Virus record (IMG/VR): IMGVR_UViG_3300045988_151163
Coordinates: 74,857-138,856 of that record
DNA: 64,000 bases
Source: a virus
Reading direction: 5' to 3' (one strand)
Of the stretch, positions 2,519 to 64,000 are shown in pieces. The position numbers and the translations under genes were made by a program. Under the pieces are notes generated by a model. That model saw nothing but the letters and a program-made list of their open reading frames with translations, did not search any database and was not told the origin of the DNA. Every line of letters starts with the position of its first letter. Positions within the stretch are counted from its first letter, which is position 1.

Positions 2519-2550
2519 AGAGAGTTGTAATAACTCTCTTTATTTTTTAT
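2517..2550. terminator. rho-independent terminator
   Basis: AGAGAGTTGTAATAACTCTCT + TTATTTTTTAT. Confidence 0.7.
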
Positions 2551-2601
2551 AAAAATTATTATATAATATATATAGAAAATAAGGAAAGGAAGTTGATAAT
2601 T

Positions 2602-2784
2602 ATGTTTATATTTACTTATTCAGTTTATCTTTCAGATTTCAAAATGATGAAGAAAATTACCACAGAAGCAATGCTTGGAGAGGTTGGATCTTGCATTGCA
2701 GTAGAAGGATATGGACCTGGCGTAATAATTAACGAAGAAGTTGAATATTATGATGCAGATAGCTGCGATGAGGAGGTCAGATAG
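2602..2784 (+). CDS. small hypothetical protein
   Basis: ATG 2602 follows the conserved leader GGAAAGGAAGTTGATAATTATG; short acidic ORF. Confidence 0.3.
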   Translation: MFIFTYSVYLSDFKMMKKITTEAMLGEVGSCIAVEGYGPGVIINEEVEYYDADSCDEEVR

Positions 2785-2785
2785 T

Positions 2786-3394
2786 ATGGAGAATAACTGG
2801 TTTGAAAAGAATGGTTTTGATCCAAAAACAAGAGAAACATATGTAGTAATTGGAGAAAACACCTATTCAATCAAGGATGAACTTAAAGCGCAGGGATATA
2901 AATACAATAAAGTTCTTGGTTGGCATGGACCAACTTTAGTCGAACTTCCGGAAGAGTATCATTGTTGCAAGATTGAATTTAATGATGTCGCAGTTGAGAC
3001 TACTTTGGATGAGCTGCGGGCTGCCTGTGGTGGCACAATACCAAAGAACTATCAGCAGCTTAGATATGGTTTTAAGGCAGGTTGCGTTGACTTTATGAAG
3101 GAATTGAAGTCAAAGTATATTAAGACATATACCCAGTTTTACGATTGCGAATGCGGCGACCGCGTTGAAATTAAGTGTAAGCTTGAAAAGTCCAATTCAT
3201 TTAATGGTAGATATGGTACTTCATATGTTTATTCTTTTGTTGCAGACAATAAGTATTTGTTTACTTGGTTTACATCTAAAAAGCTGGATATCAAAAGTGA
3301 TTATGTTATTTTAATGGGTACGGTTAAAGAACATAATGAATACAATGGAAATTGTCAGGTACTTTTAACAAGATGCATTGTAAAAGAGGTTTAA
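2786..3394 (+). CDS. hypothetical protein
   Basis: ATG preceded by GAGGAGG; the track's 2741 start lies inside the previous ORF. Confidence 0.5.
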   Translation: MENNWFEKNGFDPKTRETYVVIGENTYSIKDELKAQGYKYNKVLGWHGPTLVELPEEYHCCKIEFNDVAVETTLDELRAACGGTIPKNYQQLRYGFKAGCVDFMKELKSKYIKTYTQFYDCECGDRVEIKCKLEKSNSFNGRYGTSYVYSFVADNKYLFTWFTSKKLDIKSDYVILMGTVKEHNEYNGNCQVLLTRCIVKEV

Positions 3395-3395
3395 T

Positions 3396-61076: not shown

Positions 61077-61078
61077 CT

Positions 61079-62263
61079 ATGGAATTGACAAATAAACAAG
61101 AAGAAGGATTAAAAATAGCATTAGAGAGATATAAGAATGGAGAAAAATATACCACAATATCTGGCTATGCTGGTACAGGAAAATCAACTTTAGTTAAGTT
61201 TATCATCTCAGCTTTGGATGTAGAAGAATCTAAAGTCGCATATGCAGCATATACAGGTAAAGCCGCAGAAGTATTAAGGAAAAAAGGTAATCCAAATGCA
61301 ATGACTTTGCATAGATTACTTTATGATAGTATTCCAAGACCCGCAGGAGGTTTTTATAGAAAGCCAAAAACCAAATTAGATTACACTATTGTTGTAGTAG
61401 ATGAGGTATCTATGGTACCTAAGTCAATGATAGATTTACTCTTAGCTCATAAGATATATGTGATCTTCCTTGGAGATCCCTTCCAGCTGCCGCAGATTGA
61501 TAAGAAAGAAGCACACACACTACTCGATAAACCGCACATTTTCTTGGATGAGGTTATGCGTCAAGCCGCAGAAAGCGAAATTATCCAAACCACAATGAAA
61601 ATTAGAAATTATGAAAATATAGATTTCAAAAAAGGAAATGAAGTTATTATTATTCCTAAAAAAGAACTTGTAACTGGACATTTGACATGGGCAGATCAGG
61701 TTATTTGTGGCACAAATGCTACTCGTCAAGCTTTAAATAATCAAATTAGAAGTTTATATGGGTTTGAGGGGCTACCACAAGATGGGGAAAAAATGATTTG
61801 TTTAAGAAATTATTGGGATGACACATCTGAAGATGGAGAAAGTGTTCTTGTAAATGGTTTAACAGGAATTATTCATAATCCTTTTGAATCTTTTAGGGTT
61901 GCTCCTAGATATATAAATATGAAAAATCACAATCTTGAAAATATTACATGTGTATTTGAAACTGACGAAGGAGAAACCTTTGAGCAAGTAGAAATGGATA
62001 AACATATGATAGAAACAGGAGAAAAATGTATTGATTGGAAAGAAGCTTATGCTCTTGGTAAGTTAATTCCTAGAATTGGAGATATTGTTCCAAGAGAATT
62101 TGCTTTTGGATACGCAATCACTTGTCATAAGTCACAAGGTAGTGAGTTTGATAAAGTAGCAACAGTTGAAGAAACTTTCCCTTTTGATAGAACAGAGCAT
62201 GCTCGTTGGTTATATACAGCTTGCACTAGAGCTGCACAAAAGTTAGTTTTAGTACGACCATAA
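61079..62263 (+). CDS. RecD/Dda-like SF1 helicase (AAA_30 + UvrD_C_2)
   Basis: Walker A SGYAGTGKST, Walker B VVVDEVSMV, C-terminal ..TCHKSQGSEFD.. Confidence 0.7.
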   Translation: MELTNKQEEGLKIALERYKNGEKYTTISGYAGTGKSTLVKFIISALDVEESKVAYAAYTGKAAEVLRKKGNPNAMTLHRLLYDSIPRPAGGFYRKPKTKLDYTIVVVDEVSMVPKSMIDLLLAHKIYVIFLGDPFQLPQIDKKEAHTLLDKPHIFLDEVMRQAAESEIIQTTMKIRNYENIDFKKGNEVIIIPKKELVTGHLTWADQVICGTNATRQALNNQIRSLYGFEGLPQDGEKMICLRNYWDDTSEDGESVLVNGLTGIIHNPFESFRVAPRYINMKNHNLENITCVFETDEGETFEQVEMDKHMIETGEKCIDWKEAYALGKLIPRIGDIVPREFAFGYAITCHKSQGSEFDKVATVEETFPFDRTEHARWLYTACTRAAQKLVLVRP

Positions 62264-62273
62264 AGGAGGCTTT

Positions 62274-62498
62274 ATGCTTATTAGTACATTTGAATATCAT
62301 GCACTTTTTGGAAATAAACCAAAAGAAAAAATATCTAATGAAGATATAATTAAAGAACGTGATAAAAAAAGTGAATCATCTTTATGTGACAATAGCAGTT
62401 TTCACACATGGCAACAGCCTGAAATTGTATCTGATGAATATGGAAATACTAAAATAGAAATTGTAACAAAAACTGGCTTTGAAAATGAAGGTAGTTGA
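62274..62498 (+). CDS. small hypothetical protein
   Basis: RBS AAAGGAGG; 74 aa. Confidence 0.4.
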   Translation: MLISTFEYHALFGNKPKEKISNEDIIKERDKKSESSLCDNSSFHTWQQPEIVSDEYGNTKIEIVTKTGFENEGS

Positions 62499-62544
62499 CT
62501 TTATATTAAATTTATGCTATAATAAATTATAATATAGGAAAAGG

Positions 62545-64000
62545 ATGTCGAAAAAAATGAATTTAAGAATGGAAGTACATTCACATACAGAATATTCAAA
62601 TCTTAGATTGGTTGATTCAATCAATAAACCGGAATTATTGATTGATAGAGCAATCGAACTAGGATTAAAGGGAATAGCCATTACAGACCATGAATGTCTT
62701 AGTGGTCATGTTCGTGTACAAAAATATCAAGATAAAATAAAAAAAGAAAATCCAGATTTTAAAATTGCATTGGGCAATGAAATTTATCTTGTTGATGAAA
62801 GAACAAAAGGACAAAGATATTATCACTTTATTCTTATAGCAAAAGATGCGATTGGGCATAAGCAGTTAAGAGAATTATCTTCACTTGCTTGGTTAAACGA
62901 ATATAGTGATAGAGGTGAAAGAGTTCCAACTTTAAAGTCTGAATTAAAAGAGGTTATTGGAAGAAATCCAGGGCATGTTATCGCAACAACAGCATGTATT
63001 GGTGGAGAACTTTCTAATAATCTTTTGAAATTTAAGGCGGCTGAGCAGACAGGTAACGAGACTGGACGACAGGAAGCATATGCAGCTGCGGTTAATTTTA
63101 TTCAAGATATGCAATCAATTTTTGGAAAAGACTTCTATATTGAATTTGCTCCGGGATGTTCTAACGAACAAATTATTGCAAATAAGGGTCTTATTGCAAT
63201 AGCAGATTTATTTAAAATAAAATATGTAATTGGTTGTGATGCACATTATCTTAAAAAAGAAGACAGATATGTTCATAAAGCTTATCTTAATTCAAAAGAT
63301 GGTGAACGTGAAGTAGATGCTTTCTATGAATATTCTTATTTACAAAGTGAAGAAGAAATTTTAGAGCATTTAAGTAAATCTTTTGATAATTATAAAGAAA
63401 TTTATGATAATGCCTGTTATAATTCAATGGAAATTTGGGATAAAATTGAAAATTATAACTTGTTTCATAAACAGACAATTCCAAAAGTTGAAGTGAAAGA
63501 TTATCCTAAACTTGATTTACTTCATAGTGGAGAAGAAGAAAGAATTATTGCAGAAAACCAACCAATTCTTGCATCTATGTTTAATTCAGATGATAAGATT
63601 GAAAGATATTGGGTAAATGAATGCTTAACAAATTTATGTAATAAAAAAGAATGGACAACTTATGATTTAATTAACGAAGGATTTGATTATCTTGATAGAC
63701 TTGAATATGAAGCAGATATTAAAAAAACAATAGGAAAAAAGCTTGAAACCAATATGTTTGCATATCCAGTAACACTTCAACATTATGTTGATTTATTTTG
63801 GGAATGCGGAAGTATGGTTGGCGCAGGAAGAGGTTCTTCTTGTTCAGGATTAAATCACTATTTACTTGGTATCACACAGCTTGATCCATTAAAATGGGAA
63901 CTTCCATTCTGGAGATATCTTAATAAAGAGCGTACAGAATTAGGAGATATAGATCTAGATTTATGCCCTTCAAAGCGTCCGCGCATCTTAAATGAAATAA
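62545..64000 (+). CDS. DNA polymerase III alpha-type subunit (DnaE/PolC family), N-terminal PHP domain; truncated at the window end
   Basis: MEVHSHTEYSNLRLVDS..GIAITDHECLSGHV (PHP motifs); the ORF is open to the end of the window and is missing from the track for that reason. Confidence 0.7.
   Translation, partial: MSKKMNLRMEVHSHTEYSNLRLVDSINKPELLIDRAIELGLKGIAITDHECLSGHVRVQKYQDKIKKENPDFKIALGNEIYLVDERTKGQRYYHFILIAKDAIGHKQLRELSSLAWLNEYSDRGERVPTLKSELKEVIGRNPGHVIATTACIGGELSNNLLKFKAAEQTGNETGRQEAYAAAVNFIQDMQSIFGKDFYIEFAPGCSNEQIIANKGLIAIADLFKIKYVIGCDAHYLKKEDRYVHKAYLNSKDGEREVDAFYEYSYLQSEEEILEHLSKSFDNYKEIYDNACYNSMEIWDKIENYNLFHKQTIPKVEVKDYPKLDLLHSGEEERIIAENQPILASMFNSDDKIERYWVNECLTNLCNKKEWTTYDLINEGFDYLDRLEYEADIKKTIGKKLETNMFAYPVTLQHYVDLFWECGSMVGAGRGSSCSGLNHYLLGITQLDPLKWELPFWRYLNKERTELGDIDLDLCPSKRPRILNEI

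Follow-up and report, generated by a model that had tools for sequence, protein, structure and literature searches.

Putative sigma-A/sigma-70 promoter cassettes with a recurrent 18-nt leader in an uncultured phage of low-GC Firmicutes

Several described systems provide a frame for the repeated intergenic cassettes considered here, in each of which a putative promoter runs into a short leader. These cassettes lie in a 64-kb stretch of viral DNA, positions 74,857-138,856 of IMGVR_UViG_3300045988_151163, which is referred to below as the window; all coordinates are window positions. In Kayvirus vB_SauM-515A1, 58 early promoters supported by RNA sequencing (RNA-seq) consist of TTGACW, 17 bp, TRTGN and TATANT, and their conserved putative initiating nucleotide is the 6th base after the −10, where T is preferred (PMC7698491). 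The PeSL cassettes of T4-like phages combine an intergenic terminator stem-loop with a strong sigma-70-like promoter, a Shine–Dalgarno (SD) sequence and a start codon; they are concentrated before ORFans in plastic regions, where recombination between them makes gene insertions and deletions (indels) (PMC2839356, PMC4122927). The PN25 promoter of phage T5 reads TTGCTT-tcaggAAAATTTTTctg-TATAAT-agattc-ATAAATTTGAGAGAGGAG (primer IM103, PMC4447248). Finally, the STAB-SD/SP82 polypurine stabiliser of Bacillus, as far as it is represented in the reference list of PMC3997798, places an SD-like polypurine near the mRNA 5′ end.

The window cassettes share features with each of these systems. Early promoters of the Herelleviridae (Kayvirus, the SPO1 host-takeover module and the Sepunavirus Tre region) resemble them in forming sets of dozens of near-consensus sigma-70/sigma-A promoters per genome, and the exact 18-nt leader of the window occurs, in the same register, in the terminal-repeat region of phage Twillingate. 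In contrast to the Herelleviridae, the −35 in the window is more often TTGATT or TTGAAA than TTGACA, and the A-tract/T-tract of the spacer is unusually stereotyped. The relation of the window phage to this family is judged by DnaB comparison only, in which the nearest cultured relatives are SPbeta-like Bacillus phages (38%). Like PeSL elements, the window cassettes are intergenic, stand, in their canonical-leader form, before small open reading frames (ORFs) and are accompanied by indels made by recombination. They differ from PeSL in a Gram-positive-type host, in a conserved block that extends into the transcribed leader, and in the stem-loop, which lies upstream of or overlaps the −35 in only about 13 of 34 cases and is not inside the promoter.

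T5 PN25 and the window cassette agree in the A-tract/T-tract of the spacer, in the start at A and in a short leader, rich in purines, that runs into the SD. Moreover, in Proteus phage PM135 the string TTGACA-17-TATAAT-ATTTATATAAATTGATAAGAAAGGA-N8-ATG is 86.5% identical to the window cassette over 50 nt. The T5-like Demerecviridae, however, have Gram-negative hosts, and the first half of their leader is ATAAAT rather than AGAAAG. To judge from these sequences, the T5-like resemblance would most simply be convergent. Evidently, large lytic phages that use unmodified host polymerase early arrived at one design, namely a consensus promoter, a tract spacer, an A/T start and a purine-rich leader running into the SD. 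As in STAB-SD, in so far as that element is represented in the source cited above, the window leader carries an SD-like polypurine within about 20 nt of the 5′ end, given a predicted start and a generic 16S tail; AGAAAG at +1, in contrast, is not general among promoters of relatives.

Promoter array and consensus

A recurring promoter-like module, reported in the initial annotation of this DNA, is present in the window far above chance. Its core string, TTTTTGATATAAT, has 56 matches with at most 2 mismatches against 19.9 expected, a count that none of 100 shuffles reached. TTG exactly 17 nt upstream of TATAAT is found at 32 places on the + strand and nowhere on the − strand; spacings of 16 and 18 nt occur 3 and 4 times, which is background. 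A position weight matrix (PWM) spanning −57..+0 and scored leave-one-out (LOO) retained 30 of these 32 sites, the two dropped being one chance match inside a gene and one overlapping duplicate. It added three sites with a TTTATT −35 derived from a terminator T-run and one TTGACA-17-TATACT site. The total is 34 promoters, all on the + strand (Table 1). All 29 module positions and three further promoters named in the initial annotation map to these 34, and one extra site, at 992, lies outside the range that it covered.

All 34 promoters are intergenic and face genes or tRNAs, with intergenic DNA amounting to 13% of the window. The distance from promoter to start codon or tRNA is 11–67 nt. Among the non-tRNA gaps of 35 nt or longer, about 42 in number, 32 contain a promoter. 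The density in the window is about 1 per 1.9 kb. The strand bias extends to relatives, in which 302 strict sites were found on the + strand versus 43 on the − strand (79 loci, 1.25 Mb). A hairpin of −13 kcal/mol or stronger lies directly upstream at 13 of the 34 sites and at none of the other 21; a terminator scan called 10 of the 13, and in several of them the T-run forms the −35.

The module had been described as an extended −10 without a clear −35, a description that the alignment contradicts: T occupies both −35 and −34 at 34/34 sites, G occupies −33 at 31/34 and A occupies −32 at 30/34, at a spacing fixed at 17 nt. The commonest hexamers are TTGATT (12), TTGAAA (8), TTGACT (3) and TTGACA (3), with the consensus TTGAYW. 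The conserved AAAATTTTTG block, formerly read as an A/T-rich UP element, is in fact the spacer between −35 and −10 and is 91% A+T. Upstream of the −35 the DNA has genome-average composition (68% A+T in −57..−36 versus 67% in the genome) and near-zero information (at most 0.24 bit per position). By these measures a UP element, an alpha-CTD site at −40 to −60, is absent.

The spacer itself is patterned, with a T block at −30..−26, A at −22 (32/34), T at −17 (33/34), T at −15 (33/34) and G at −14 (27/34). It ends in TnTG, a ‘−16 region’ of the Gram-positive type (TRTG); the extended −10 TG is present at 26/34 sites, and position −16 is T or A rather than strictly purine. The −10, TATAAT at about 34/34, is followed by a 5-nt A/T discriminator, after which T occupies the 6th base (−1) at 26/34 sites, A the 7th (+1) at 28/34 and G the 8th at 18/34. 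The same T/A start appears in 353 promoters of relatives that were fetched without regard to the leader. Judged by their −35, 17-nt spacer, −16 region and co-oriented upstream position, the 34 elements are predicted sigma-A/sigma-70 promoters of the Gram-positive type.

Transcription probably starts at this T/A, 6–7 nt after the −10, since the initiating nucleotide of the Kayvirus promoters is likewise the 6th base, with T preferred. The same start region precedes tRNA-Thr and tRNA-Pro, and in the relative L185 it directly precedes tRNA-Tyr. Three of the sites stand before tRNAs in place of ORFs, which makes the conserved start region a feature of transcription and not of translation.

The leader in the window and across phages

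The reuse claimed for the module, about 28 times, holds for the promoter, with its 34 sites, and not for the 22-nt leader, which is found at 6 sites only within 3 mismatches. Its 18-mer core, TAGAAAGTTAAGAAAGGA, occurs at five sites within 2 mismatches (8717, 9251, 9498, 13956, 26418) and at three further sites within 4 mismatches (992, 2562, 6987), while site 30606 carries a 1-nt insertion. All of these 18-mer-like leaders lie before 31 kb, in the accessory/tRNA half; cassettes with a canonical leader fall within its part from 2.5 to 31 kb and precede small ORFs that carry no annotation. The remaining 25 sites have in common only the T/A start, A-richness and the SD.

Conservation past the SD, as initially noted, is real and extends into +1..+8. 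The predicted 5′ untranslated region (5′UTR) measures 25–28 nt in the canonical version and 11–67 nt overall. Leaders contain 55% A and 2.1% C, compared with 12.9% C in the genome; their SD is AAAGGA(G), and the ATG follows 6–12 nt after it. Cytosine is also avoided in the 353 promoters of relatives, at 1–4% C through +24. Opening −18..+4 is predicted to cost 3.1 kcal/mol at promoter-proximal genes as against 5.6 kcal/mol at internal ones (p = 3e-5), and 0.7–3.3 kcal/mol at the canonical leaders. SD strength is ordinary for this phage, at −10.2 versus −9.7 kcal/mol at internal genes (p = 0.79), and on these values the idea of stronger SDs at promoter-proximal genes was rejected.

Since the start region is also found at tRNA promoters and SD strength is ordinary, the ‘leader beyond the SD’ consists of the start site with the first transcribed bases (+1..+8), which pass straight into an ordinary SD (+9..+17). 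An Rfam scan of the whole window gave no match at the leaders. The proposal that the leader is a binding site for a translational regulator or an RNA-processing site is not borne out, given the occurrence of its start part at tRNA promoters, the ordinary SD and the presence of the same 18-mer in phages of different hosts.

A separate recurrent string, (A)TTGATAA, stands between the SD and the ATG, for example at 2591-2601, 13986-13993, 16307-16321, 29594-29609 and 33393-33407. It is also common after the 18-mer in other phages, and its TTG is sometimes in frame with the ATG. This string would extend pairing to GAUCA of the 16S 3′ tail, taking the predicted duplex from −10.3 to −13.6 kcal/mol.

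Beyond the window, at least 119 IMG/VR stretches, on contigs of 7–198 kb, contain the exact 18-mer. Among the matches listed, 122 of 126 stand exactly 5 nt after TATAAT with an ATG 6–12 nt downstream; around the 18-mer, the −35, the promoter spacer and the SD–ATG spacer are all variable. The proteins encoded behind it belong to at least 44 families unrelated at blastp 1e-5 and are mostly small; those annotated include an RNA ligase, NAMPT, NADAR, a BrxL-like protease, YqeY and an IF1-like protein. At 42% identity, the homologues of gene 9536 are embedded in operons that lack any cassette, which indicates that the cassette is not tied to particular genes. Gene 8756, considered as a test of leader conservation at orthologous sites, has only near-identical relatives.

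Bacterial and archaeal genomes (596 Gb) yielded 36 stretches with the 18-mer, about 20 of them in promoter context. Most of the latter lie on phage-sized contigs binned with metagenome-assembled genomes of Oscillospiraceae, Eubacterium or Lachnospiraceae. Since genome matches are few and mostly on phage-sized contigs, the cassette is associated with phages and is not a host leader.

The boundaries of the motif are gradual. At sites chosen by TATAATATTTATAGAAAG alone the continuation varies, with TTAAG next in 20 of 98 new loci; on account of this variability, an obligate linkage of the two leader halves was rejected. Near-variants of the 18-mer differ chiefly by purine-to-purine changes, and positions +1, +4, +7, +9 and +14 are almost fixed. 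Together, the near-variants and the variable continuation suggest that the canonical leader is the commonest allele in a continuum rather than a sharply bounded motif.

Searches with blastn also recovered the cassette in cultured phages. Staphylococcus phage Twillingate (Herelleviridae, Sepunavirus) carries TTGACA-17-TATTAT-AATTA-TAGAAAGTTAAGAAAGGA-N10-ATG in its terminal-repeat (‘Tre’) early region, and in Enterococcus phage VRE9_1 the exact 18-mer follows TATACT. Cassette matches of 79–88% came from T5-like phages of Proteus, Providencia, Pectobacterium, Yersinia, Vibrio and Aeromonas. The occurrence of the 18-mer in Staphylococcus, Enterococcus and Clostridia-associated phages argues for a fit to conserved host machinery over a phage-specific factor. 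The identity of the 18-nt leader across phages is a modest curiosity, for which a literature search with the single string AGTTAAGAAAGGA found no paper. Arrays of early sigma-70/sigma-A promoters, strong ribosome binding sites and mobile cassettes were already known.

Recombination at cassettes and competing explanations

Breakpoints were compared between the window and its 92–95%-identical relatives. The clearest case is the relative L184, which lacks gene 9288-9470 together with one cassette; at its junction a hybrid cassette perfectly combines upstream sequence of 9251 with downstream sequence of 9498. L185 lacks gene 13994-14365, with a junction directly after TATAGAAAGT, so that the promoter now directly drives tRNA-Tyr. 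Gene 3396-4178 is missing from both relatives, and the right junction falls at the terminator/promoter of cassette 4212. Breakpoints within 45 nt of a cassette centre number 8 of 42, against 4.6% expected, with some redundancy between comparisons.

The cassettes are also repeats in their own right: 9225-9280 is an exact 56-nt duplicate of 13930-13985, and cassettes 11446 and 4212 are identical at 48 of 52 positions. As repeats of 40–56 nt, they also provide the homology for recombination events in which small genes are gained, lost or exchanged. As read from the aligned sequences, one clean case and two junction cases show recombination between cassettes yielding gene indels between close relatives. 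The 11446 cassette resembles a vestigial gene start left by a deletion, and would now drive tRNAs.

The likely explanation, held with fairly good confidence on sequence grounds, is that the 34 elements are host sigma-A/sigma-70 promoters with a short leader that drive the early/middle arm of the phage, the leader being one favoured allele. Unmodified host RNA polymerase with the housekeeping sigma would recognise all 34, and the cassettes would drive an early/middle arm made up of accessory genes, tRNAs, RNA-repair genes and replication genes. The proposed order of parts would be an often present terminator hairpin, its T-run overlapping the −35, then TTGAYW, a 17-nt spacer of T-block, A-tract and T-tract, TnTG, TATAAT, the discriminator and T-A(-G). 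A predicted 5′UTR of only about 25–30 nt, made up of 55% A and 2% C, is unable to pair back on its AAAGGA(G) SD. Any gene behind the cassette would be given strong transcription and efficient translation, whatever its coding sequence. The exact TAGAAAGTTAAGAAAGGA would be one favoured allele, shared among many Firmicutes phages by selection and/or horizontal spread.

Some observations weigh against this explanation. A model of an A-rich unstructured leader with an SD does not alone predict an exact 18-mer across host orders. The adjacent −35, spacer and −10 differ around the shared 18-mer, and some sequence-specific constraint remains unexplained. In addition, the accessibility contrast is partly due to the shorter upstream context given to promoter-proximal transcripts, and the enrichment of breakpoints at cassettes is modest, redundant comparisons included.

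An alternative, which we regard as unlikely, is that the conserved leader is a specific mRNA or DNA recognition element (a translational repressor site, an endoribonuclease site or an operator) that defines an immediate-early regulon. T4 RegA is a translational repressor, and T4 RegB is an endoribonuclease that inactivates early mRNAs, with the target GGAG. A recognition element would agree with the retention of the exact 18-mer while promoter flanks and the SD–ATG spacer vary, with its restriction in the window to the accessory/tRNA half before 31 kb, with downstream genes that mostly encode small accessory or counter-defence-like proteins, and with the direct repeat AGAAAG-N3-AGAAAG that the leader holds. 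Yet no phage regulator is evident that would be shared by the Staphylococcus, Enterococcus and Clostridia-associated phages that carry the 18-mer and the Gram-negative T5-like phages that carry near-copies. The leader has no dyad symmetry and no Rfam match, its near-variants form a continuum dominated by purine-to-purine changes, and what follows TATAATATTTATAGAAAG is variable. As for RegB, the canonical leader has AAAGGA followed variably by A, T, C or G, and holds GGA(A/T) rather than GGAG; no RegB-like gene is among the annotated window ORFs. A leader devoid of sequence-specific function, whose identity stems from recent duplication, gene conversion and the horizontal spread of a selfish or hitch-hiking cassette, is quite unlikely as well. 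The exact 56-nt duplicate and the 48/52 pair speak for such spread, as do the cassette–cassette recombination product in L184 and the PeSL cassettes, which have spread in this way in T4-like phages (PMC2839356). Nevertheless, the 18-mer is an island of identity, as is seen from TTGACA-acgtaactataacatga-TATTAT in Twillingate against TTGATT-ttcataaatatttttga-TATAAT in the window, and its substitutions are position-specific, with +1, +4, +7, +9 and +14 nearly invariant.

The remaining alternative concerns the promoters rather than the leader. The initial annotation set apart three genes with ‘textbook’ promoters (−10 at 21941, 27994 and 41804) and proposed two classes, an extended −10 without −35 and a textbook −35/−10, used at different times. 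Such a split does exist in Kayvirus, the late promoters of which have no −35 and a long −10, TGTTATATTA. In the window, however, the −35 is present at 17 nt in all 34 sites, and the Kayvirus late motif TGTTATATTA is not enriched (28 versus 19.6 expected) and not intergenic. The three ‘textbook’ sites score 25.0, 39.5 and 15.1 on the common PWM, inside the score distribution of the family, and site 27994 even carries the family start ATTTATAGAAAA. Because these scores fall within the common range, the two-class reading falls, and we consider it highly improbable.

A stronger reading of the leader is conceivable, although it is doubtful: TAGAAAGTTAAGAAAGGA may be a sequence-specific 5′-terminal mRNA element common to phages across Firmicutes (Staphylococcus, Enterococcus and Clostridia-associated). 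One possible form would be tandem 16S-complementary sites, AGAAAG-UUA-AGAAAGGA, that dock the 30S subunit at the 5′ end; another possible form would be a site for a conserved host factor. AGAAAG (+1..+6) and AGAAAGGA (+10..+17) are complementary to a generic Firmicutes 16S tail, ...CCUCCUUUCU, with predicted duplexes of −5.0 and −10.3 kcal/mol. If this reading is true, 30S docking would protect the transcript from 5′-exonuclease and give immediate-early genes priority, and the exact sequence kept while the surrounding promoter changes would be explained. AGAAAG at +1 was also considered as a general second anti-SD site and rejected, as it is not general in the 353 promoters of relatives, where ATAAAA and AGAAAA at +1 are equally common.

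Genomic setting and significance

The cassettes are listed in Table 1. The flanks upstream of two of them, 13900-13932 (promoter 13956) and 26360-26394 (promoter 26418), are alike, reading …GAGATCTCAAACCGGTTGCCGC… and …GGGATCTCACCATCGGCTGCCGC…, respectively; their hairpins, of −22 and −24 kcal/mol, may be the 3′ ends of unannotated RNAs.

Table 1. Promoter cassettes predicted in the window, in order of position (LOO, leave-one-out score; PWM, weight-matrix site).
Span	Strand	−10 at	Promoter and leader	Downstream gene and context	Evidence
969..1035	+	992	−35 TTGTTT; leader variant TAGAAAATGAAAAAAGAAAGGA	gene 1036; strong hairpin 922-968 directly upstream	LOO 30.4
2539..2601	+	2562	−35 TTTATT overlapping terminator T-run; leader 3 mismatches from 18-mer	gene 2602	LOO 29.9
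4189..4251	+	4212	leader TAGTAAATGAAAAGGAAAGGAAG	right junction of 0.8-kb indel vs relatives	LOO 26.7
6434..6517	+	6457	TTGATT-17-TATAAT; 49-nt leader	gene 6518	PWM
6964..7026	+	6987	TTGACT-17-TGaTATAAT	gene 7027; inside terminator hairpin 6948-6978	PWM
8694..8755	+	8717	canonical leader (1 mismatch)	gene 8756	leader match
9228..9287	+	9251	exact canonical leader	gene 9288; left arm of recombination vs L184	leader match
9475..9535	+	9498	canonical leader (1 mismatch)	gene 9536; right arm of recombination vs L184	leader match
10348..10399	+	10371	truncated leader TAGAAAGTTGGTAAGGAG	no ORF; tandem with next promoter	PWM
10442..10487	+	10465	start ATTTATAGAG; 11-nt leader	tRNA-Thr 10488	PWM
11423..11481	+	11446	leader TAGTAAATGAAAAGGAG	vestigial ATG 11482; tRNA-Phe 11512 ~30 nt on	sequence
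13933..13993	+	13956	exact canonical leader	gene 13994	leader match
16261..16321	+	16284	TTGATA-17-TATAAT; leader TAGAAATTGAAAAGGGG	gene 16322	PWM
21918..21974	+	21941	TTGACA-17-TGcTATAAT	GT2 gene 21975; ‘canonical’ in the initial annotation	LOO 25.0
26395..26457	+	26418	canonical leader (2 mismatches)	gene 26458	leader match
26956..27009	+	26979		tRNA-Pro 27010	PWM
27351..27421	+	27374		gene 27422	PWM
27971..28037	+	27994	TTGATT-17-TGcTATAAT; top score of family	DUF2828/DUF7788 gene 28038; after hairpin 27931-27971	LOO 39.5
29544..29609	+	29567	−35 overlaps T-run of terminator 29520-29540; leader TAGAAATTGAAAAAGAAAGGG	gene 29610	sequence
30583..30648	+	30606	leader CAGAAAGTTAAAGAAAGGAG (1-nt insertion)	small ORF 30649, then MVP-like gene 30815	sequence
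33351..33407	+	33374		gene 33408; after terminator 33326-33351	sequence
34600..34658	+	34623		HNH endonuclease gene	sequence
36708..36776	+	36731	−35 TTTATT in terminator T-run	gene 36777	LOO 30.5
41468..41559	+	41491	TTGCAA-17-TGaTATAAT; 57-nt leader	gene 41560	sequence
41781..41836	+	41804	TTGACA-17-TATACT; weakest member	DUF5662 gene 41837; ‘canonical’ in the initial annotation	LOO 15.1
42371..42419	+	42394	TTGACA-17-TGaTATAAT	gene 42420, then gyrB/gyrA	sequence
46849..46950	+	46872	67-nt leader	gene 46951	sequence
48863..48934	+	48886		gene 48935	sequence
49111..49201	+	49134		gene 49202	sequence
51955..52002	+	51978	TTGACT-17-TGaTATAAT	gene 52003	sequence
52380..52451	+	52403		gene 52452	sequence
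54617..54679	+	54640		gene 54680, then DnaB-like helicase; after terminator 54590-54614	sequence
60677..60733	+	60700		gene 60734; after hairpin	sequence
62495..62544	+	62518	TTGACT-17-TGcTATAAT	DNA polymerase gene 62545	sequence

The window has a G+C content of about 32%, nearly every ORF on the + strand and 20 tRNA genes. Two IMG/VR contigs (143 kb and 122 kb) match it at 94–99% protein identity, and its DnaB helicase and DNA polymerase recur at 51–70% identity in dozens of metagenomic phages of 100–165 kb; a megablast of one window gene against cultured phages gave no match. Annotations include a GT2 glycosyltransferase, a tail-fibre-repeat protein, a DUF2828/DUF7788 protein, a protein resembling the major vault protein (MVP), an RNA ligase, PhoH and an amidase, in addition to gyrB/gyrA, DNA ligase, ClpP, ThyX, DnaB, RecJ and an SF1 helicase. 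The DNA polymerase gene starting at 62545 encodes 1349 aa (L187), with NrdD next downstream. No sigma factor or RNA polymerase gene is among the 40 annotated window ORFs. The window makes up the arm for accessory, RNA and replication functions in a ~143-kb phage whose hosts are probably anaerobic low-GC Firmicutes of the gut or rumen.

Several further RNA features lie in or beyond the tRNA array. A full-length ROOL RNA at 13106-13706 (+) (Rfam RF03087, 273 bits, E = 2e-61) sits within it, directly upstream of tRNA-Met 13721 and promoter 13956. Five ORF-free gaps between tRNAs (10560-10786, 11936-12337, 12627-13015, 14459-14753 and 16861-17393) have a G+C content above that of the rest of the window and no Rfam family match in the whole-window scan; these long gaps are candidate structured RNAs of an unrecognised kind. 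Weak tRNA-like Rfam matches that ARAGORN did not call lie at 11788-11860, 14667-14734, 27088-27160 and 27244-27338. A tRNA of the array with the anticodon UUA, at 15209-15279 (+), would read the UAA stop codon as a suppressor, and the window ORFs appear intact under the standard code despite its presence.

Near ROOL and the tRNAs lies a gene set (28038-29504, 30815-33313, 35460-36677 and 37357-38430) that recalls eukaryotic vault/Ro ribonucleoproteins and RNA repair. Its members include the DUF2828/DUF7788 protein, called ‘vWA’ in the initial annotation, the RNA ligase, an AAA_33 kinase and phosphoesterases, together with an 832-aa protein that has major-vault-protein shoulder and repeat domains (PF11978 at 1.5e-21, PF17795). 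Homing-endonuclease-type genes (PD-(D/E)XK with NUMOD1, HNH_3 and GIY-YIG) occupy 15531-16190, 34653-35216 and 49534-50523, and a close relative, L001, has insertions of about 1.1 kb relative to the window near 53632 and 62217-62493. These endonuclease genes and insertions point to active traffic of mobile elements, as read from the compared sequences, besides cassette recombination.

Outside the window the organisation changes. About 9 kb past its right end, genes switch to the opposite strand (L187 19037-21455), and a 70% relative, L267, contains at 799-11779 an 11.8-kb opposite arm in which long ORFs, including a tail-fibre-like one, follow closely upon one another. These 11.8 kb lack any strict sigma-A promoter site, versus about 1 per 1.9 kb in the window. 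An opposite-arm protein used as a database query proved very widespread. The opposite arm is likely a late module under different control, and a second regulatory regime probably operates elsewhere in the genome; nothing in the window separates temporal classes by promoter type.

A repeated intergenic element of about 75 nt was also observed at 17636-17710 and 53452-53530 (+), with the form GGAGCGCARACA ... GAACTTTTT and the core GGAGCGCARACA ... TTTRGAACTTTTT. The copies stand downstream of terminator hairpins and ahead of genes 17787 and 53523, neither of which has a sigma-A promoter. Its two copies are syntenic in the 70% relatives L003, L004 and L007 and were not found in more distant relatives. 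This element may represent either a leader RNA or a promoter of another class.

Overall, the analysis provides a regulatory map of one phage arm, on which 34 predicted transcription units are marked together with terminators. The clade concerned, uncultured and with genomes of ~143 kb, is abundant in metagenomes of gut and rumen and also carries a ROOL RNA, about 20 tRNAs and a vault-protein-like gene. The map extends to Firmicutes phages the idea, known from PeSL, of regulatory cassettes that double as joints for gene shuffling. A compact, portable promoter–5′UTR unit of about 75 nt that is used by very different phages is a candidate strong expression part in Firmicutes, and the cassette is a simple setting in which to ask which features besides the SD optimise a bacterial leader.

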